A stretch of 64,000 bases of DNA, from positions 38,616-102,615 of the forward strand of contig JALONP010000008.1 of assembly GCA_025454875.1 (NCBI GenBank), in the 5' to 3' direction. Positions 20,184 to 27,979 of the stretch are shown one piece after another. Under the pieces are notes generated by a model, which was given only the letters and a program-made list of their open reading frames with translations, made no database searches and had not been told where the DNA came from. The DNA comes from Bacteroidia bacterium. Lineage in GTDB: Bacteria > Bacteroidota > Bacteroidia > UKL13-3. How positions within the stretch are numbered: the first letter of the stretch is position 1; each line of letters begins with the position of its first letter. A program made the position numbers and the translations under genes.

Positions 20184-21707
20184 TTAAGCTTGTTCACTTT
20201 CATTCTGAGGTTGTCTTAGTTTATAATAAATTTCCAAACTTTCAATTAATGCATCTTTAAGCTGCAATCCATTGTTAAATCGAAGTTGTTGCCAGTGTCG
20301 AAGATTAAATCCTACACTTGCATCTGTTTTTGCATCTGGCTGATTACGCATTAGTAAAATAAAATTCTCTTGCTCATACCCCTTTGCTCTATTCAGCCCC
20401 ATTAAAAAGCCCACTTCATGATAAACATTTATGTTTTTTGTACTGAGATCAGCAATAAGCAACCCGGTATTATTAATCAATTCGAGTATTTCATCTGATA
20501 TGGTATAGGCATGGCCTTTATTCACCTCATCAATACGAATATGCTTTATTTTCAAATCAAGGTTGTGTCTACGGTTTGCCTCAGCTATTGCTTCCTCAAT
20601 GGCCTGCTTTACTTCTTTAGATGCTTCATCAAACTGCATAGAGATAAATACATTGCGTGACCGTGCCTTTAGAATTGTATCGTATACTACAATTAAGTCA
20701 TTGGCTGTAATATCAGCAATCGTGTAAATGTGGTTATAGAGTACCCAGTTTTTGAACGACTTCCTGAAATCACCATGCTGTAAGTTCAACTCGTAATAAA
20801 CAAATGCACTAAATAAAGCAGGGCTATTACATTCTTTCAAAACAGCATGTTGTTGATAGATTACATTGACATTATTAACAGCCTGCATTACTTTATTTAT
20901 TTCTGCATCATTGTTCTGGATAATCTTCTTTTGCAGCAATAACTTGAACAGTTCCAAAAGCACTGTACGCTTTATAATTACTTCTTCACCATTATCCTTC
21001 CATGTTTTGAACGATTCAGAAATTGCCTGTAATACTTCTAAATCAACTCTGTCCTTTACTTTTCTTGCAAAATAAAAATGAGGGCCAAAAGATGGATTAT
21101 TCTTTAATTTTTCATCAGTGAATATGTCTACTTCATCCAATATCAACCTTAAATTTTCTTCCGATGTAAGCGGTACAGACTTACTATTAATGTTATGGAA
21201 AATCACTCTTTTATACTCTTCACTTTGGGGTGTATCTGGAAAGAGAATTAAACAAAAGGGTGTCATATAATCATTAAACTCTGCCGCTTCAGGAGCTGCA
21301 CTCAGTCGGTGGTTTCCATCTATTCTGAAAAAAGGCTTATTTGTTTTCAACCAACCTTCTGGTATGTCAATAATTACTTTGTGTACCCCAGATTGAGTGG
21401 ATTTAATGCTAAAAGAATCCACATTCGATTTAAATGTTTTTCGGTCAAGAATATTCTTTAGCGGGTCAATGCCGGAAAGCCCTTTTGTAAAATCATATTT
21501 GAGGTTGTATGACAGTATTACCTCAGGAAAGAATAGATACTCTTTATCTTTTAAAAAGTTTACGATTGCTTCCCGTTGTTCGTCAATTAAGTTACGCTGA
21601 TAGCTAAGATCAGCTTCAGAACTTCTTGCTAAATCACCCATTGGGGCAAAGCCCCGAACGCAGGTGAAACCGCCTAAGGATTGTGATAATATGCCTTCTA
21701 ATCTCAT
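20184..21707 (-). CDS. DndB-like DGQHR-domain (ParB/Srx-fold) protein fused to a C-terminal nucleoside-2-deoxyribosyltransferase/SLOG-like Rossmann domain.
   Basis: The N-terminus matches the DGQHR family pattern: QRNLIDEQREAIVNFL...FFPEVILS, then FFRIDGNHRLSAA. The last ~150 aa follow the NDT-like pattern NVFISMQFDEASKE...LLIADLS..NINVYHEVGFLMGL. Confidence 0.6.
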   Translation of the reverse strand: MRLEGILSQSLGGFTCVRGFAPMGDLARSSEADLSYQRNLIDEQREAIVNFLKDKEYLFFPEVILSYNLKYDFTKGLSGIDPLKNILDRKTFKSNVDSFSIKSTQSGVHKVIIDIPEGWLKTNKPFFRIDGNHRLSAAPEAAEFNDYMTPFCLILFPDTPQSEEYKRVIFHNINSKSVPLTSEENLRLILDEVDIFTDEKLKNNPSFGPHFYFARKVKDRVDLEVLQAISESFKTWKDNGEEVIIKRTVLLELFKLLLQKKIIQNNDAEINKVMQAVNNVNVIYQQHAVLKECNSPALFSAFVYYELNLQHGDFRKSFKNWVLYNHIYTIADITANDLIVVYDTILKARSRNVFISMQFDEASKEVKQAIEEAIAEANRRHNLDLKIKHIRIDEVNKGHAYTISDEILELINNTGLLIADLSTKNINVYHEVGFLMGLNRAKGYEQENFILLMRNQPDAKTDASVGFNLRHWQQLRFNNGLQLKDALIESLEIYYKLRQPQNESEQA

Positions 21708-21712
21708 ACTTG

Positions 21713-22549
21713 CTATTTTATGATTTCACTCATTATTTCAAATTTCTCAAGCAATGTTTCTACAAACTGCTGCTTGGTAATGAAATACTTTTTGTATTTA
21801 CTTTCTAATGCTTTGCTGTAAGTAACATTAATGCGATAGTACTCTTTACCATTTGCCTTAACTGTTGTTGACATTTCAATAACTTTTGCCGAAGGCATAA
21901 ACAAAATGTGTTCGCCAATTTCAGCCTTATCAGGATCATAGGCGATGCCTACCAAATAAAAAGCATGATGTGCCCGGAAAGTGTTCTTGCCTATACTTAA
22001 AATAAGCTGGTCTGCTTTTTTTACCTGAAACCTTGATTTTACCTGTAAGTATATTGGGAGAAAAACTCCTTCTTTCAAGATAATTAAATCTATTCCCCTA
22101 GTATCTATGACAGGTCGGTACACATTTAATAACCCCTGGCTATTGAGCAAAATAATTTCTTTCACTCTGTCTTCAGCTATATTGCCTTTGGCCTGACTTG
22201 ACAAACCTGAAATATCTACGAGTGTTTCGTCTTCTTCTTCCTCCGCATCTTCAATTGATGGGGCAGCAGTCTTTGAAATAGTAATCAACTGCTGTGTTAC
22301 ATTTACTGACACTACATCACCCGGCTTTAATTTGTTACGCTTGTAAAATGTAGTAAGGCCAAATATGCGGTAATGATCTGCATTGTAATTTTTTGAAGCT
22401 ACTTGCTTCTCATCATAAAGTTTCACCTGCACCTGTGCAGTTTCATTAGGTAAGAGATCTCGTACCTGAGCCGGTACGTAAATAAACCCAAGACGGGTTT
22501 CTACCTCTATCAACTTTCGCTGGTATGTTATGGTTTGGGTATCTTTCAT
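21713..22549 (-). CDS. Small predicted nuclease: N-terminal B3-like (EcoRII-N/BfiI-like) DNA-binding pseudobarrel plus C-terminal PD-(D/E)xK nuclease core.
   Basis: N-terminal region LGFIYVPAQVRDLLP...YRIFGLTTFYKRNKLKPGDVVSV looks B3-like. C-terminal ...IDTRGIDLIIL...YLQVKSR fits a D-x(n)-(E/Q)xK core. The start overlaps the S-gene stop by ATGA. Confidence 0.5.
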   Translation of the reverse strand: MKDTQTITYQRKLIEVETRLGFIYVPAQVRDLLPNETAQVQVKLYDEKQVASKNYNADHYRIFGLTTFYKRNKLKPGDVVSVNVTQQLITISKTAAPSIEDAEEEEDETLVDISGLSSQAKGNIAEDRVKEIILLNSQGLLNVYRPVIDTRGIDLIILKEGVFLPIYLQVKSRFQVKKADQLILSIGKNTFRAHHAFYLVGIAYDPDKAEIGEHILFMPSAKVIEMSTTVKANGKEYYRINVTYSKALESKYKKYFITKQQFVETLLEKFEIMSEIIK

Positions 22550-23955
22550 GATGCTGTATTTAAAATCAGTTTTTCAATTTCCTTTTTGGCAGCTTCAAAA
22601 TCCATTTTCGCTTGTACCAAAAGTTGATGAGCTTCTTCTGTTCTCACTCTTACTTCCTTGGCAATCATTTGCTGAACCGATAGTGGTGGGGAAGGAATAA
22701 GTAAATGCTTTACATCATCCGGAGACAAATGCCCATTTGTAGCACCGGTTACATTACGTTTGATTTCAATTTGCGATGGTTTGCACCGTAAAAAAGCATA
22801 CACAAAATAAGGATCGAACTTGCTTTTATCGGTTAGAAACTTTACGATATCACCCCCTAAATAATATTTGCCAGGATATGACCAGTAACCCACCTTACCG
22901 ATAGTAGCTCCGGTGATTACTACCAAAATATCATCTTGCTTTAGTTCCTGATAAGCATTGAACACATCTTTTGCAGTTAATAGATTATCAAGGTCAATTG
23001 TGCCATCCATATTAATGGAGTTAATCTGCACAACTTTATTATCTCCTTCTTTTTCCTCCTGCTTTGGTAAATAGCCTTTCACTAAAAGGCCGGATAATAT
23101 TTGCTTCAGAAACACTGCACCATAATTCCCTTTTGCTATTGATTCCTTTACATCGTAGAAATAGGTTTTATTAAAAAATGGATCAAACCTATTACCCGAA
23201 ACTTTGGTAAAGGAGGTATTGAATGTTCGGTTTTCAATTGTATTTGCAGGTTCTGGTGGTAAGGAAATACCCAACTCATTCAAAAGGTAATCATCAATAC
23301 CATCTAACAGCTTTGCCGATTGATGTTCAGTAGACTTTCTTTGTATTCTTGCTTCAGTATAAAGTTTAGCAATTCGCTCTTGTTCATCAATTGGTGGTAC
23401 TGGGATTTTAAGAGCCCTTACTTCCTGTGCATTGACATTAGTCATTCCTGCTATTTGACGACTAACTGCATCAATTTGCATTCTGCCAATACTTGAGTTT
23501 ATAAAAAATGAAACATATTCAGGTAGCAACTTTGAATTATCCAATTCTACTCGAATAAAGTATGAAGCAAAAACCCAATCGCCATCTTCATGAAAAACAG
23601 CACATTTACCAACAAGCTCCTTAGAGTTTGTTCTGTTGAAAAGAATATCTCCTTTTCTGACTTTGTAACGTTTAAATTCTATCTCATCAAACTGAATGTA
23701 TTTCAAATCGTTTAATCTCCATTCCTCATCTTGCAGGTTTAGCATCCGAAGCATCGGATAGCCTCCATTTTCTTTGCTTGCAAGCGAAGAAGAGCCATAT
23801 TGTAGGCGTAAAATTGCTTTGCCTAAACGCTCAATCTTGTAAGGCGATTTCTCAATGGTTTTTAGAAACTTCTCATAAAGTAAATGGTAATTGGGATCCC
23901 ATCTAATAATTCCAAGCTCGCCCCGATTAAGTAAGAAATACTTATCTACACTCAA
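22546..23955 (-). CDS. hsdS: Restriction-modification specificity (S) subunit with two target-recognition domains.
   Basis: Two TRDs, each followed by a conserved helical spacer (IPVPPIDEQERIA / LIPSPPLSVQQMIA); 469 aa. Confidence 0.85.
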   Translation of the reverse strand: MSVDKYFLLNRGELGIIRWDPNYHLLYEKFLKTIEKSPYKIERLGKAILRLQYGSSSLASKENGGYPMLRMLNLQDEEWRLNDLKYIQFDEIEFKRYKVRKGDILFNRTNSKELVGKCAVFHEDGDWVFASYFIRVELDNSKLLPEYVSFFINSSIGRMQIDAVSRQIAGMTNVNAQEVRALKIPVPPIDEQERIAKLYTEARIQRKSTEHQSAKLLDGIDDYLLNELGISLPPEPANTIENRTFNTSFTKVSGNRFDPFFNKTYFYDVKESIAKGNYGAVFLKQILSGLLVKGYLPKQEEKEGDNKVVQINSINMDGTIDLDNLLTAKDVFNAYQELKQDDILVVITGATIGKVGYWSYPGKYYLGGDIVKFLTDKSKFDPYFVYAFLRCKPSQIEIKRNVTGATNGHLSPDDVKHLLIPSPPLSVQQMIAKEVRVRTEEAHQLLVQAKMDFEAAKKEIEKLILNTAS

Positions 23956-23963
23956 ATCGGGGC

Positions 23964-26171
23964 TTAGACGAAAAAACGATCTTGGCCTTGAATTACTTGC
24001 TCGATGAAAACCTTTAACTGGTCCGCAGCAGTTTCCAATTCATTAATGCCTGATTTTCTCCCGACAGCATCATAGCCAATATTCTCAGCAATCACCATCA
24101 GTATTGGGTAATTGGTTACTTCATCGGCTATTAGCTTCAGATATTCATCTTGCAGATTCTCTTTAATTTCATTTATCTGCTCATTGTACAATTGTGTGAT
24201 GTCGGCCTTCCATGCTTTAAACTCTTCCGTTTTCTCTGCTACTTTTTTACCCTTAGCACCCCATTGGGTGGGTGGAGCAGCTCCATCCAATACAGCAACA
24301 TTTTCGGCCAATTCCCAATTAATGGCATTGTAATCAAAACCCTTATGCTCTTTGAGTACCTGTTTCTTTTCTTCATCAAGCCTTTTTATTTCATCGGCAA
24401 ATTGCGGCTGAACAAATAAGCGGTCTTGCAGCTTTTCCTTTGCATCAATGATTTTTTTAGATTCCTTATCAGACAGCTTTCTCAAGAAGAGAACAGAACT
24501 TTTTACACCAGCACCATTTGCAGTGAAAGCGGTTTGGGGCAGAGATACAACCGCTACAATACGGTAGTGCTCTTCTATCCAATCTCTAACATATTGGGAA
24601 CTGCTATTGGTTAGTATTCCATCAGGAATTACTACCGCCAAAAAGCCGCCCGGCTTTAAAAATCTGTGGCATTGCTCAATAAACAACACCTCTGTACTTT
24701 GGCTGGTACGAGTACCCAGCGTGTAGTTACTTTTCTGGCGTTTATCAATCCAGTTTACATCGGTAATACCCAGTTTATAATTTTTGAGGTATGCCTGTTC
24801 AGTTTGCTTGATGCTGCTACCAAAAGGCGGATTGGTAATGATGAAGTCAAAATTATTTCGTTGAAAACCTTTGTTTCCAGTACGTTCAGCAATCACTTCA
24901 GGATCGTACAAACCATCAATCGCCACAACATTCGTATGACCATCATCGTGAATAATCATGTTCATTTTGGCGGTACGTGCTATGCCTTCAGAAATCTCTA
25001 TTCCATAGAGATTGTTTTCAGCAAAGTCGTGCCAGTATTTGTGGTGTTGTACAGAGCCCTTCTTGAAGTAACCTTCTTCTGCTTTTTTATCGGCTTGCTT
25101 TCTTACCTTATCCAATGCATAGAGCAAGAAACCACCAGAGCCGCAGGACGTATCTAATACAAGACTGTCATTTTCTATCGGCAATACCTTCACAATAAAA
25201 TCAACTACTTCCCGAGGAGTAAAATATTGACCAAAATCACCCCTGAAAAATGAACCAAGGAATGTTTCAAAAGCCCGGCCTTTGCTATCGAGGTCTGTAT
25301 CGTGCAGGTTAAGTTCTGCTAAATACCCAACTATTGTTTTTAGTTCATTTGCTGATAACCTGATTGGTTCTTTAAATACTTCGGGATCTTTCTTTTTGCC
25401 CTCCTCATATATTCCCTGAATACGTTTTAACAATTCATCGGGATGTTCACCAGTGTATTCCTGGAAGTCGTATGGCTGTCCTGATTTTCGGGGTTTACGT
25501 TCATCCCAAATTTTACAAAAGATGAGTTTATCAAGTTCGTCAAATGCTTCAGATGGATTACGCTTTCCACCAGCCCAAAGTGCCTGATGGGCTTGTTCAA
25601 AAACTTTGGTCAAATCGCTTTGCTCTACAATCTTTATATCCCTTGCAGGATTTCCAACTTCATCCCTACCACCCTTGTAAAACTTGGCAAGTGTAATGCC
25701 TGTTTGCCCAAATCTGGGAATATCAGCAATGATGTTTTGTACCCGTTCTAATGTCGGATAGTTTTTTACATCATAAGATTTTGTTTTAATGCCAGATGTT
25801 ATCTGAACGAAACGAGCACCCAAAGCAACAGCATTGCCAAAGCCTTGCTCAATTGCCTGATTGAACTCTGCTTCTGATATTTTTTGCTTTTTGCATTCTA
25901 TAACGATGTAAGGCTTCTTCTTTTCATCATCCTCAAAAACGACAATATCCGCCAAATCGCTTGGAGTTCTTTTGGGTACAATAAATTCCAAACTGATTCG
26001 CTGTGGTTTATACCCGTATTCGATTATCAAGGACAGATAAGTCTCTGCTCTCACTTGCTCTTCAGGGTCAGAGAAACGATACCGCTTGCCCTGTGCCTGA
26101 TAGATTATGTATTTGTCATCATCTTCAAACGAAACGTGACCGAGTTCAATGCCTTTACCTATTATATTCAT
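23964..26171 (-). CDS. N6-adenine DNA methyltransferase (gamma class, HsdM-like) with an N-terminal HsdR-N-like PD-(D/E)xK nuclease domain. Architecture is BcgI-A-like (Type IIB) or a Type I M subunit without a separate R.
   Basis: MTase motifs: motif I-like LVLDTSCGSGGFL and motif IV NPPFG. N-terminal ~190 aa match HSDR_N-like: ETYLSLIIEYGY...ADIVVFEDD...YIVIECKK (E...D...ExK). I chose the start at the internal Met (MNIIGKG) to avoid a 44-bp overlap with abiEii; the ORF could extend to 26225. Confidence 0.8.
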   Translation of the reverse strand: MNIIGKGIELGHVSFEDDDKYIIYQAQGKRYRFSDPEEQVRAETYLSLIIEYGYKPQRISLEFIVPKRTPSDLADIVVFEDDEKKKPYIVIECKKQKISEAEFNQAIEQGFGNAVALGARFVQITSGIKTKSYDVKNYPTLERVQNIIADIPRFGQTGITLAKFYKGGRDEVGNPARDIKIVEQSDLTKVFEQAHQALWAGGKRNPSEAFDELDKLIFCKIWDERKPRKSGQPYDFQEYTGEHPDELLKRIQGIYEEGKKKDPEVFKEPIRLSANELKTIVGYLAELNLHDTDLDSKGRAFETFLGSFFRGDFGQYFTPREVVDFIVKVLPIENDSLVLDTSCGSGGFLLYALDKVRKQADKKAEEGYFKKGSVQHHKYWHDFAENNLYGIEISEGIARTAKMNMIIHDDGHTNVVAIDGLYDPEVIAERTGNKGFQRNNFDFIITNPPFGSSIKQTEQAYLKNYKLGITDVNWIDKRQKSNYTLGTRTSQSTEVLFIEQCHRFLKPGGFLAVVIPDGILTNSSSQYVRDWIEEHYRIVAVVSLPQTAFTANGAGVKSSVLFLRKLSDKESKKIIDAKEKLQDRLFVQPQFADEIKRLDEEKKQVLKEHKGFDYNAINWELAENVAVLDGAAPPTQWGAKGKKVAEKTEEFKAWKADITQLYNEQINEIKENLQDEYLKLIADEVTNYPILMVIAENIGYDAVGRKSGINELETAADQLKVFIEQVIQGQDRFFV

Positions 26172-26181
26172 GCCGATATTT

Positions 26182-27012
26182 TTATTGTTTTTTGAATTCT
26201 TTAAAGTCAATGGAAGTTTCCTCAATTTTCTCCAGCAACTCCGTTCGCACTAATTCAAAAGCGGTTGCCTGGTCGTATTTTTCTGTTGGACGTATGAGGG
26301 CTGCTATGTCTCCTATAAATTCATCGTCCTGCATTTTGGCCTCCATGTTTTGCAGATAAACCTTTTGCGTAGGTGGTTCATCTACCACAAAATCCATGTA
26401 GGCATGATAGCATTGCAACAGGGCGTCTTTATCCATGCCTGGCACTTGCACCAGTGCCTTGTACATGTCGTATAAATCACGGCCTTTTCTGCGTTGGTAT
26501 AAGGCCCTGAGTTTTGTACCCAGCAGTTCTTCCAATTGGTAAGTGGTGATGTTGCAGGCACCGGTAAACCATGAGGAATTTACCTGAAAGGGAAATTGCT
26601 GGTAGCCCAATACAGTGAAATGTTCCCGGCAATTGGTTTCTACTTTGAGGCGGAGGTTTTGCACCGGAGGGAACTCAGATTCAAAACGGTAATGCAGGGT
26701 AAAATTGTTTTCTTTCTGCTTGCGGGCAGGGTCACCTAAAAAGGCCAGCCTCTCTCGTAAACGGTCCACCACAGGGCCGAATGGTTCTGCGGTGATTTGA
26801 ACCAAATCAATATCCTCAGAATATCTGGGTTGAGGCTGTAAATACAATTTGTGCAAAGCCGTCCCCCCTCTGAATGCTAAACTTGATGCTAACCATTCAT
26901 CTGAAAAGATTTCTACCAAGGAACGACAAATCACCAGGTCTTGCTCCACCTGTTCGTTGGTTTGCCAGGGTACCTGACTGGCCCATTCTGTTATGTATGC
27001 CTGTGGTATCAT
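26182..27012 (-). CDS. abiEii: AbiEii/AbiGii-family nucleotidyltransferase toxin (type IV TA / abortive infection).
   Basis: Signature FRGGTALHKLYL ... RYSEDIDL (DUF1814 nucleotidyltransferase motif). Confidence 0.85.
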   Translation of the reverse strand: MIPQAYITEWASQVPWQTNEQVEQDLVICRSLVEIFSDEWLASSLAFRGGTALHKLYLQPQPRYSEDIDLVQITAEPFGPVVDRLRERLAFLGDPARKQKENNFTLHYRFESEFPPVQNLRLKVETNCREHFTVLGYQQFPFQVNSSWFTGACNITTYQLEELLGTKLRALYQRRKGRDLYDMYKALVQVPGMDKDALLQCYHAYMDFVVDEPPTQKVYLQNMEAKMQDDEFIGDIAALIRPTEKYDQATAFELVRTELLEKIEETSIDFKEFKKQ

Positions 27013-27064: not shown

Positions 27065-27979
27065 CTATAGGTCGATTTCAATTGTAGTGTTTACGATTAC
27101 TTTCCATCTTTCGTCTGATGCAAAACCTTTGGCCGGAGCTGAGGCTTTCAGCGGTATCCGAAACAAAGGGGCATTGTTATTTTGTAAGGCCATGTATAAG
27201 GCGTTAGCCAGCGGCTGGTTGTCAAATATTTTATCCAACAGATAGCCCAAACGCTGCAAGGCAGTTACCGGAACATGCTGCAGCAGATTGGCATTAAATG
27301 CGTTGGGTTGAATACTTTCGGCTAATTCAGCCAAAACGGTGGCCACCCTGTTGATGCCACCTACCCGTTTGGCGTACTGTATCAGATCGGTGGCGGTTAA
27401 GGCAGGGTTTGAAATTTTTAAGTATCCGGTCTCGGTTTTCCGGGTGTCTAACAGTGTTGCAGGTATTTCCTTTTTGCTGATGTAGTTCAGCTTCAGCCCT
27501 TTTTTCTGCATAGGTCGCAGCACGGGAAAGCCGGTAACCACAAAAAACTCCTGTGGCTGCTGGTGCGATGCTCCATGATAGGCGGCTGCGTTTAGTAAAG
27601 CCAGGTAATAAGGCCGGTCTAATTCCTTCATAAACGCATCTAAAAACAAGGTGGGGGGAAGGATTCCCTTTGACCTGTATTGGGGCGGTATAATGAGGTA
27701 ATACCCTTTATGGATGGAAATGATCTGCTCTTTATCTACCAGCCTTTTCAAGGCGAACTTATTGGCCGTATCTGACTGCCCGGGAAAATCGGCACGGAAC
27801 TGGTGCAGGGCAAAAGCATATTTACCCTTTGCCAGCAGGTGGTTTACCCAATCTTCTGCACTCTTATATTGCCTTGAATCTTCCAAGAGAGTAATTTTTT
27901 GCGAAAGGTAGTGAAAACTACTACCTTTTGCAAATGTTTTCTCTTTATTTTTTGCTTTGCTTATCATATAGAGTAGCAA
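27065..27979 (-). CDS. abiEi: AbiEi-family antitoxin/transcriptional regulator.
   Basis: Immediately upstream of abiEii on the same strand. About 300 aa with an N-terminal wHTH-like and C-terminal AbiEi-like region. Confidence 0.65.
   Translation of the reverse strand: MLLYMISKAKNKEKTFAKGSSFHYLSQKITLLEDSRQYKSAEDWVNHLLAKGKYAFALHQFRADFPGQSDTANKFALKRLVDKEQIISIHKGYYLIIPPQYRSKGILPPTLFLDAFMKELDRPYYLALLNAAAYHGASHQQPQEFFVVTGFPVLRPMQKKGLKLNYISKKEIPATLLDTRKTETGYLKISNPALTATDLIQYAKRVGGINRVATVLAELAESIQPNAFNANLLQHVPVTALQRLGYLLDKIFDNQPLANALYMALQNNNAPLFRIPLKASAPAKGFASDERWKVIVNTTIEIDL

Follow-up and report, generated by a model that had tools for sequence, protein, structure and literature searches.

DndB, DpdB and other DGQHR-type proteins (TIGR03187, PF14072 and NF041060) are predicted ParB/Srx-type modules that bind nucleoside triphosphates (NTPs) and DNA in defence systems based on DNA modification; the hallmarks by which the DGQHR domain itself is defined are a QR pair, an FxxxN motif and the DGQHR pentapeptide, which hardly varies (PMC4619093). 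DpdB, a ParB-like ATPase, is required when DpdA exchanges bases in DNA (PMC12839542). In GmrSD, BrxU and SspE, a ParB-like DUF262 NTPase is followed by a C-terminal HNH/DUF1524 nuclease; GmrS has an NTPase domain (PMC10952713), and these proteins reside in defence islands, often by restriction-modification (RM) or BREX genes. The nucleoside 2-deoxyribosyltransferase (NDT) family is represented in defence by the NDT-like effector of retron Ec86, a precedent for such domains as anti-phage toxins, which depletes adenine derivatives and has a catalytic Glu, E106, the equivalent residue being E98 in LlNDT (10.1101/2023.08.16.553469). Moreover, NDT, TIR, HEPN and restriction endonuclease (REase) domains are interchangeable C-terminal effectors of Abi-type proteins, and toxins of the PrrC/RloC type are embedded in RM operons (PMC3710099). 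Here, we describe a gene on a 64,000-nucleotide stretch of DNA from a Bacteroidia bacterium (contig JALONP010000008.1, positions 38,616 to 102,615; the window), the 507-residue product of which, named T507, joins a DGQHR/DndB-like N-terminal domain to a predicted NDT/TIR-like C-terminal domain and is encoded as the last gene of a conserved cassette with a predicted type IIB-like RM enzyme.

T507 is encoded by a single open reading frame (ORF) with an ATG start, as given by the ORF list and the translation. A plus-strand reading of the same stretch was rejected, its translation being full of stops; the original prediction had given no strand for the gene, which is on the minus strand. The features of the gene are as follows (aa, amino acids; AF2, AlphaFold 2; pLDDT, predicted local distance difference test).

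20184..21707, minus strand: T507 ORF, comprising a DGNHR domain predicted to be ParB-like, a helical region and an NDT/TIR-like domain (ORF and translation; more than 1471 homologues, mostly full length; AF2 pLDDT 81.6)
20184-20186, minus strand: stop codon of T507
20922..21707, minus strand: DGQHR/DndB-homology region, aa 1-262 (TIGR03187, Pfam DndB and invariant columns)
21300..21326, minus strand: RIDGNHRLS, aa 128-136, the family-invariant variant of DGQHR with Q replaced by N (translation; conservation in 70 sequences)
20697..20921, minus strand: all-helical linker region, aa 263-337 (AF2 secondary structure; conservation)
20187..20696, minus strand: NDT/TIR-like flavodoxin-fold domain, aa 338-507 (models and profiles)
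20409..20450, minus strand: DLSTKNINVYHEVG motif, with Glu431 at nt 20415-20417 (translation, conservation and NDT alignments)

The gene closes a same-strand cassette, in keeping with the original prediction that it is the last of its operon: the gene that comes next, after a gap of 345 nt, is unrelated. More than 1471 relatives came up in a protein search; almost without exception they are 490-545 aa in length and align from end to end, and every named relative among those listed carries the label 'hypothetical protein'. In a scan of one genome per species, relatives are encoded in 201 species, the closest being that of a Chitinophagaceae metagenome-assembled genome (MAG; 96% identity). The locus counts given below refer to 80 loci fetched among these 201 species, and the family counts to 70 members from many phyla that were aligned and profile-scanned one by one. 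T507 as a whole falls within no curated family of Pfam, NCBIfam or PADLOC, and Pfam and PADLOC scans of the window protein itself gave no match. Across the 70 sequences, 24 positions are invariant; these include a first block (R128, G131, N132, H133, R134, F170, N172, N174 and E183), Trp321 in the helical region, and a second block (F354, S356, M357, D393, G398, N425, N427, V428, E431, G433 and N468).

Residues 28-262 of T507 match the NCBIfam DGQHR model TIGR03187 with an E-value of 7e-8 and a score of 32.5 bits, which is below the curated cut-off of 58.85. At the level of the family, this model is matched by 66/70 members at E ≤ 0.01 (best E 2.6e-16), the DpdB model NF041060 by 15, the PADLOC DpdB model by 17, and Pfam DndB (PF14072), which has no match in the window protein, by 18; as far as profiles can tell, these matches show homology to DGQHR/DndB and not curated membership. 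The similarity of the family to GmrSD_N is marginal (11/70 members, best E 0.0015). All three defining motifs are present, the pentapeptide in variant form: the QR pair corresponds to Gln37 and Arg38 (at least 90% conserved), the pentapeptide reads DGNHR rather than DGQHR, with its Asn132 invariant in 70/70 sequences, and the invariant Phe170 and Asn174 of the FxxxN motif lie in FHNIN.K..PLT.EE at residues 170-184. On the strength of TIGR03187 in 66 of the 70 members together with the QR, DG[N]HR and FxxxN motifs, we assign the N-terminal part of T507 as a DGQHR/DndB-type domain, as had been predicted from the sequence of this gene by itself. Among the individual motifs quoted in that prediction, FFPEVIL (residues 59-65, of which FFPE is 59-62), IDGNHRL, FDEA (residues 359-362) and the stretch at residues 416-438 are all to be found, whereas 'QR.LxxxRxxxIxxFL' was off by one residue, the real sequence being QRNLIDEQREAIVNFL.

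The remainder of the protein is of a different nature. The AF2 models of full-length T507 (pLDDT 81.6) and of residues 338-507 (pLDDT 76.7) both give the C-terminal region as a β-α-β-α-β-α-β-β-α flavodoxin-like domain, that is, with the flavodoxin-like α/β fold that characterizes the NDT family. Foldseek placed the CMP N-glycosidase MilB at the top of its matches to this domain (E 0.01). Pfam PF05014 (Nuc_deoxyrib_tr) is matched by half of the family (35/70; best E 3e-7), the best scores being 28.7, 27.9 and 27.0 bits for Firmicutes members, over profile positions 7-102 of 117, against a gathering threshold of 28.8; a PF05014 scan of the window protein gave no match. The PADLOC model PDLC00733 ('Effector TIR') is matched by 52/70 members (best E 3.6e-6), the window protein not being among them, and Pfam ThsB_TIR and CAP12-PCTIR_TIR by four and two members, respectively, all with E ≥ 0.013. 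When a divergent Firmicutes member was compared with the PDB sequences, 16 weak matches were obtained, 15 of them to the NDT family (LlNDT, TbNDT, Rcl/DNPH1 and CMP N-glycosidase); PDB sequence searches with the whole of T507 and with C-terminal profiles returned nothing useful. The PDB titles of MilB and DNPH1 describe hydrolases of hydroxymethyl-CMP (hmCMP) and hydroxymethyl-dUMP (hmdUMP), respectively. The C-terminal domain has, in addition, roughly 2,600 distant relatives with E-values between 1e-10 and 1e-3.

In the NDT family, the catalytic Glu stands where the helix after the central strand begins; its counterpart in T507, Glu431, is invariant in 70/70 members. In all four printed NDT-family alignments, it is paired with the catalytic Glu, that of MELGYA in LlNDT, of GYELG in Rcl, of AFEVG in TbNDT and of HIEIG in the CMP N-glycosidase 4jen. 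It resides within LLIADLSTKNINVYHEVGFLMGL at residues 416-438, the first part of which, LLIADLSTKNINVYHEVG, spans residues 416-433. T507 shares with the NDT family (NDT, Rcl/DNPH1 and MilB in PF05014) and with the retron Ec86 effector both the fold and the motif [A][D/E][L/V][T/S]..x..[G/N]V.[Y/H]E.G with its Glu. It departs from the NDT family in its first strand, F[IV]SM.F, which recalls the 'FISY' of TIR domains and not the glycine-rich loop of NDT, in the family-specific invariants Asp393, Gly398, Asn425, Asn427 and Asn468, and in profile matches that lie at or below the Pfam threshold. From the TIR effectors of CBASS, Thoeris, Pycsar and SPARTA it differs in having few Pfam TIR matches and no cyclic-nucleotide, SAVED, STING or Argonaute partners. 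We take the C-terminal 170 residues to be a predicted N-glycosidase module of the NDT/TIR type, NDT and TIR being the closest sequence families. The secondary structure of the models, the profiles and the alignments agree in making this a separate Rossmannoid domain and not a helical tail of the DndB kind, as the original prediction had it; its suggested affinity to SLOG is not supported, as LOG structures score below other fold classes and the per-member scans contain zero SLOG profile matches. Of two further readings, REC was rejected as a primary assignment, since Response_reg is not among the families reported in the 70 per-member scans and no acidic pair follows β1, and CARF was set behind NDT and TIR, since Csa3_N (17/70) and PADLOC CARF2 (14/70) match fewer members than do the NDT (35/70) and TIR (52/70) models.

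The N-terminal ~260 residues thus resemble DndB and DpdB in their profile matches and in the QR, DGxHR and FxxxN motifs, whereas the signature is DGNHR, the partners are type IIB-like RM and S (specificity) genes instead of dnd, ssp or dpd genes, and an extra NDT/TIR-like domain brings the length to 507 aa, the DndB profiles being shorter (338 positions in PF14072 and 381 in TIGR04172). Indeed, no dnd, ssp or dpd genes accompany T507, either in the window operon or within ±10 kb of the 80 loci, so the absence of dnd and ssp genes noted for the window extends to these loci. The predicted arrangement, an N-terminal ParB-like sensor and a C-terminal effector, is that of GmrSD, BrxU and SspE; unlike these, T507 has as its effector a predicted Rossmannoid of the N-glycosidase type, not a nuclease, and is operonic with S rather than standalone. 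Unlike the retron Ec86 effector, its NDT-like domain is fused to a ParB-like domain and is linked to RM, with no link to a reverse transcriptase.

The two partner genes lie on the same strand, upstream of T507.

23964..26225, minus strand: RM subunit, 753 aa, a PD-(D/E)xK nuclease fused to a gamma-class N6-adenine methyltransferase (MTase) (Pfam HSDR_N_2 and N6_Mtase; RM.BsaXI)
22546..23955, minus strand: S subunit, 469 aa, with two target-recognition domains (Pfam Methylase_S, two matched stretches; PADLOC Specificity_I, 242 bits)

In its longest form, the RM ORF has a TTG start at 26225; the true start is probably the ATG at 26171, because the longest ORF overlaps the end of the neighbouring AbiEii gene by 44 nt. 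Among solved structures, the RM subunit is closest to RM.BsaXI, in which the nuclease and the methylase of a type IIB enzyme are combined (aa 53-589, E 9e-35), and its nuclease residues Asp93, Glu110 and Lys112 align with Asp90, Glu105 and Lys107 of BsaXI. Mutation of these BsaXI residues abolishes cleavage, and BsaXI cleaves DNA as an assembly of RM plus S, (RM)2S (PMC11997821). Asp93, Glu110 and Lys112 are conserved in 60-61 of the 61 T507-linked RM homologues, as is the MTase motif TNPPF (aa 464-468 of the window RM). To judge from the genes alone, the pair resembles the type IIB enzymes BsaXI and BcgI in combining an RM subunit, made up of an N-terminal PD-(D/E)xK nuclease and a gamma-class N6-adenine MTase, with a separate HsdS-like S subunit bearing two target-recognition domains; it is unlike BsaXI in the length of RM (735-753 aa versus 916 aa in RM.BsaXI). 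We predict that RM and the two-domain S make up a complete type IIB-like RM enzyme, nuclease included. The 'M/S pair' of the original prediction is therefore in need of correction: 'M' is an RM fusion related to RM.BsaXI with conserved Asp93, Glu110 and Lys112, and the cassette does not lack a restriction nuclease. A type I reading was rejected, since no HsdR-like gene is present in the operon or conserved in the 80 loci and the M protein has its own nuclease. Membership of the MADS system was likewise rejected: RM scores 325 bits against a cut-off of 720 (MAD2) and S 87.6 against 400 (MAD5), the other MAD genes are absent, and neither T507 nor the 278-aa ORF of the window operon (see below) matches any NCBIfam MADS model. 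A C-terminal motif of RM, ...AENIGYDA.G..., is strongly conserved at aa ~705-735 (window 24000-24100), well past the MTase domain. The C-terminal 'paddle' of BsaXI is needed for cleavage.

The association of T507 with RM and S is conserved far beyond the Bacteroidota. Both partners are found near T507 in 67/80 loci, and RM and/or S lie directly upstream in every one of the 63 loci whose upstream sequence extends for 4.2 kb or more; the order RM-S-T507 spans Bacteroidota, Proteobacteria, Firmicutes, Thermotogota, Verrucomicrobiota, Planctomycetota and Spirochaetota. S and T507 are translationally coupled, the stop of the former overlapping the start of the latter by 4 bp in 48/67 loci. Moreover, the pairwise distances of T507 are correlated with those of RM (r=0.77). 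Two distant relatives (L084 3825-8823, and L067) have the order RM-T507-S instead; the T507 relative of the former aligns only to query residue 440.

The linkage is further illustrated by gene fusions, which we count as supporting, not decisive. Two cluster representatives of ~1190 aa combine an RM-like N-terminus with a complete T507 in one chain, and in two others the target-recognition domain of S is joined directly to the NDT-like domain. The T507 portion begins at ~338 in every fusion to a partial T507, except for a HEPN fusion that keeps aa 94-497. In the latter (P0382, 627 aa; L094 174-2057, on a single 7-kb contig), a HEPN Hypoth_Ymh domain precedes T507 residues 94-497, giving the T507 scaffold a second predicted toxin domain. 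One of the long fusions (1192 aa, RM-like/T507; L093 1910-10778) lies in a defence island with patatin/TPR-S, MAP3K_TRAF_bd/TPR-S, ThsB_TIR and integrase genes, and a 302-aa gene just upstream of it carries a second NDT-like domain (matching T507 aa 347-439, E 5e-8). A gut-metagenome element (L092 2143-9075) encodes TnpV, AAA_14/DUF4143, RM (613 aa), a 431-aa fusion of an S target-recognition domain to the NDT-like domain, T5orf172 and a 986-aa SIR2_2 protein, whereas its sister contigs (L089-L091 7001-8344) have, in the same context, a 447-aa fusion of the RM N-terminus to the NDT-like domain; one cassette appears to have given rise to all of these by successive deletions. On Leisingera thetidis plasmid NZ_CP109788.1 (L081 6891-9134), a 747-aa coding sequence annotated as 'N-6 DNA methylase' contains T507 residues 113-497 and adjoins an integrase fragment; it looks like a deletion that fused the RM gene to T507.

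T507 is nevertheless an accessory to the RM system and not part of its core. Among RM homologues sampled at 55-66% identity to the window RM (L096-L099), one is followed by T507 and then an Mrr gene (L097), and the contig of another ends before the presence of T507 can be judged (L096). In the remaining two, which are 55-58% identical to the window RM, RM and S occur without T507 within 3-6 kb downstream: a RelB/ParE pair comes next in L098, and reverse-transcriptase and insertion-sequence genes in L099. Conversely, T507 without RM or S was not seen in any of the 80 loci in which the flanking sequence permits a check. Because RM and S exist without T507, whereas T507 was never seen without RM or S in the loci that allow a check, we regard it as an accessory that depends on RM. 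The RM gene of L098, 55% identical to that of the window, stands on an 8-kb contig of an archaeal MAG (GCA_035639395.1, labelled Nitrososphaera sp.), where transpeptidase, esterase and RelB/ParE genes are its neighbours; the presence of RM and S there could be bin contamination by bacteria or horizontal transfer.

How might such an accessory work? The reading that we favour, albeit tentatively and at somewhat less than an even chance, is that T507 is an NTP-gated N-glycosidase effector on the type IIB-like RM complex, a backup of the PrrC kind. RM and S would form a self-sufficient restriction-modification enzyme of the BsaXI/BcgI type, to which T507 would be the sensor-effector accessory; translated in step with S, it would probably dock on the RM-S complex. 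The DGNHR domain would act as a ParB/Srx-type module for NTP binding and DNA sensing, as in DndB, DpdB, GmrS of GmrSD, and SspE, and it is by analogy with these that we infer an NTP-dependent sensor of the state of the DNA. The C-terminal domain would be an N-glycosidase of the NDT/TIR type, with Glu431 as the catalytic residue, which is kept inactive until the N-terminal domain or RM-S reports foreign or restriction-evading DNA. Once activated, T507 would split NAD+ or a nucleotide at the N-glycosidic bond, whereupon an essential metabolite would be depleted and the infection aborted. It would, in other words, be a second line of defence against infections that have got past restriction, for which PrrC with EcoprrI, the NDT-like retron Ec86 effector and TIR effectors offer analogies.

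The parallel with PrrC and RloC extends to the position of the gene inside an RM operon near hsdS, to the combination of an N-terminal regulatory domain of the NTPase type with a C-terminal toxin domain, and to the accessory relationship with an RM system that works alone. There is, however, no sequence relationship: the domains of PrrC and RloC are an ABC-type ATPase and an anticodon nuclease of the HEPN class, those of T507 a predicted ParB-like and an NDT/TIR-like one, and the partner of PrrC and RloC is a type I system instead of a type IIB-like one. Several observations weigh against the proposal. The weak CARF-like matches (PADLOC 14/70, Csa3_N 17/70) leave room for a ligand-sensing, non-catalytic role; the Foldseek E-values are only ~0.01; the window protein itself falls under the curated cut-offs of both TIGR03187 and PF05014; the accessory status is based on two informative loci; and some of the fusions come from single metagenome contigs, at least one of them (P0376) having the look of a deletion derivative of a neighbouring arrangement.

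A different possibility, which we consider unlikely, is that T507 is a DNA-directed glycosidase (a 'restriction glycosylase', or a type IV-like enzyme directed at hypermodified phage DNA) that excises or exchanges bases under the guidance of the DGNHR domain or of S or, in a variant, that it destroys pools of hydroxymethyl-pyrimidine nucleotides. An N-terminal domain of the DndB/DpdB/GmrS type would suit such a role, GmrS being part of a modification-dependent enzyme (PMC4619093), and the DpdB models match 15-17/70 members. Moreover, MilB and DNPH1, with their hmCMP and hmdUMP substrates, are among the closest relatives by structure and sequence, type IV genes (Mrr and GmrSD) are frequent immediate neighbours, and the NDT-like domain is fused in some loci to the DNA-recognition domain of S. 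However, no phosphate- or base-binding residue of MilB or DNPH1 could be mapped, and any defence island commonly has type IV genes nearby. To our knowledge, moreover, no NDT-fold enzyme acts on polymeric DNA, which also counts against this possibility. It is quite unlikely that a ParB-like, NTP-driven module brings an NDT-fold enzyme to DNA, possibly via S, in what would be DpdA/DpdB-like chemistry on a new fold, or that T507 destroys hydroxymethyl-pyrimidine nucleotides.

It is also rather improbable that T507 is a DndB-like regulator or sensor of transcription or of RM activity (for example, in restriction alleviation), with a Rossmannoid domain that binds a ligand in the manner of CARF, REC or SLOG. 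The dnd operon is under negative control by DndB (PMC3632139, PMC4507180), the C-terminal domain has REC-like and CARF-like structural and weak profile similarity, and the occurrence of RM and S without T507 would be compatible with a regulatory role. Against this, among the families reported Response_reg matches none of the 70 members whereas the NDT family profile matches 35, the residues of the REC signature are lacking, β1 not being followed by an acidic pair, and no helix-turn-helix domain was detected in T507; furthermore, the invariance across phyla of the residue at the NDT/TIR catalytic position and of the N.NV.HE.G motif would be unusual for a pure ligand sensor. Finally, that T507 is a core restriction subunit replacing HsdR, such that restriction by M/S depends on it, is most unlikely: although a helicase-nuclease of the HsdR type is conserved in none of the 80 loci and T507 is fixed in last place after S with translational coupling, 'M' itself contains a conserved PD-(D/E)xK nuclease, a homologue of the one in RM.BsaXI, RM and S pairs at 55-58% identity occur without T507, and T507 has no recognisable nuclease or translocase domain.

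In the window, a further gene stands between S and T507.

21713..22549, minus strand: 278-aa ORF, a putative Mrr-like nuclease and lineage-specific, RM-linked insert between S and T507 (motif; distribution)

The original prediction had counted this 'small nuclease' as part of the system, which its distribution does not bear out. The ORF is present in only 3/80 T507 loci, the three closest of the Bacteroidota. Its family of 175 proteins, mostly from Bacteroidota and without a Pfam domain, includes members beside a canonical type I RM system (M-S-R) and a pentapeptide protein (L087 7001-7825) and in an island of type III Mod/Res, AbiC and prokaryotic Argonaute (pAgo) genes (L088 7001-7825). Given its presence in so few loci and beside unrelated RM systems, the ORF is an independent RM-linked accessory gene, outside the conserved cassette. 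The window ORF has no Pfam, NCBIfam, PADLOC or PDB sequence match. The family has a conserved N-terminal domain of ~95 aa and an invariant E...GIDLI...QVK motif, which aligns with the Mrr_cat motif, but at an hhalign probability of 1% (E 0.05); a nuclease function is a guess from this motif. In the two other Bacteroidota loci that have the 278-aa gene (L002 8696-9145 and L003 8710-9144), an extra ORF of ~145 aa with a weak AAA_22 match (E 2e-4) is located between S and the 278-aa gene; the window is without it.

Directly upstream of the RM gene is an AbiEi/AbiEii toxin-antitoxin (abortive-infection) pair, which was seen in only one (L001) of the 80 related loci.

27065-27979, minus strand: AbiEi (PADLOC, 332 bits)
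26182-27012, minus strand: AbiEii (PADLOC, 384 bits)

The block is flanked by housekeeping genes, mnmE-like upstream and an S1-domain gene downstream, and the G+C content is 0.34-0.38 across 20-24 kb as against 0.42-0.44 outside, which fits an acquired island. Within ±10 kb of the 80 loci, only the RM and S gene clusters (and T507) recur in more than eight loci; the recurrent neighbours of the cassette are tyrosine integrases (eight loci), Mrr-type nucleases (six) and GmrSD (five). A home on phages or plasmids was rejected, as relatives were found in 0 phage records, in one plasmid record (a degenerate fusion) and in 5 of 2.9 million IMG/VR contigs. A scan for promoters and terminators gave counts at or below the shuffle expectation, Bacteroidota promoters being outside the coverage of the scan.

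Each component of the cassette is of a known class, be it the ParB-like sensor, the NDT/TIR effector, the type IIB RM enzyme or the RM-embedded accessory toxin; what appears to be new is their combination, together with the conserved unit of three genes. ParB-like domains paired with nucleases, and NDT/TIR domains paired with other sensors, are known, but we found no account of a ParB-like domain paired with NDT/TIR. The suggestion that this is an undescribed module is borne out to that extent: no description of a DGQHR-NDT/TIR protein or of an RM-S-T507 cassette was found in the literature, of which most subscription-journal papers were outside reach, such that an earlier description is possible. 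Likewise, no mention of a third, translationally coupled gene was found in the accessible part of the BsaXI paper (PMC11997821).

Defence annotation in its current form misses both the RM nuclease and the third component, since neither Pfam nor NCBIfam nor PADLOC offers a model for T507 and the label routinely given to the 'M' gene is that of a type I M subunit. We consider T507 a good candidate for an anti-phage backup effector of a new type. If the proposed mechanism is correct, a widespread three-gene module, present in at least 201 species and small in size (~5 kb without the Bacteroidota insert), would couple a self-sufficient type IIB-like RM enzyme to a dedicated N-glycosidase sensor-effector, and a second, metabolite-directed layer of defence would be attached directly to the RM complex. 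Were T507 instead to act on modified nucleotides, the cassette would also cover phages that evade the type IIB nuclease through hypermodification of their DNA.

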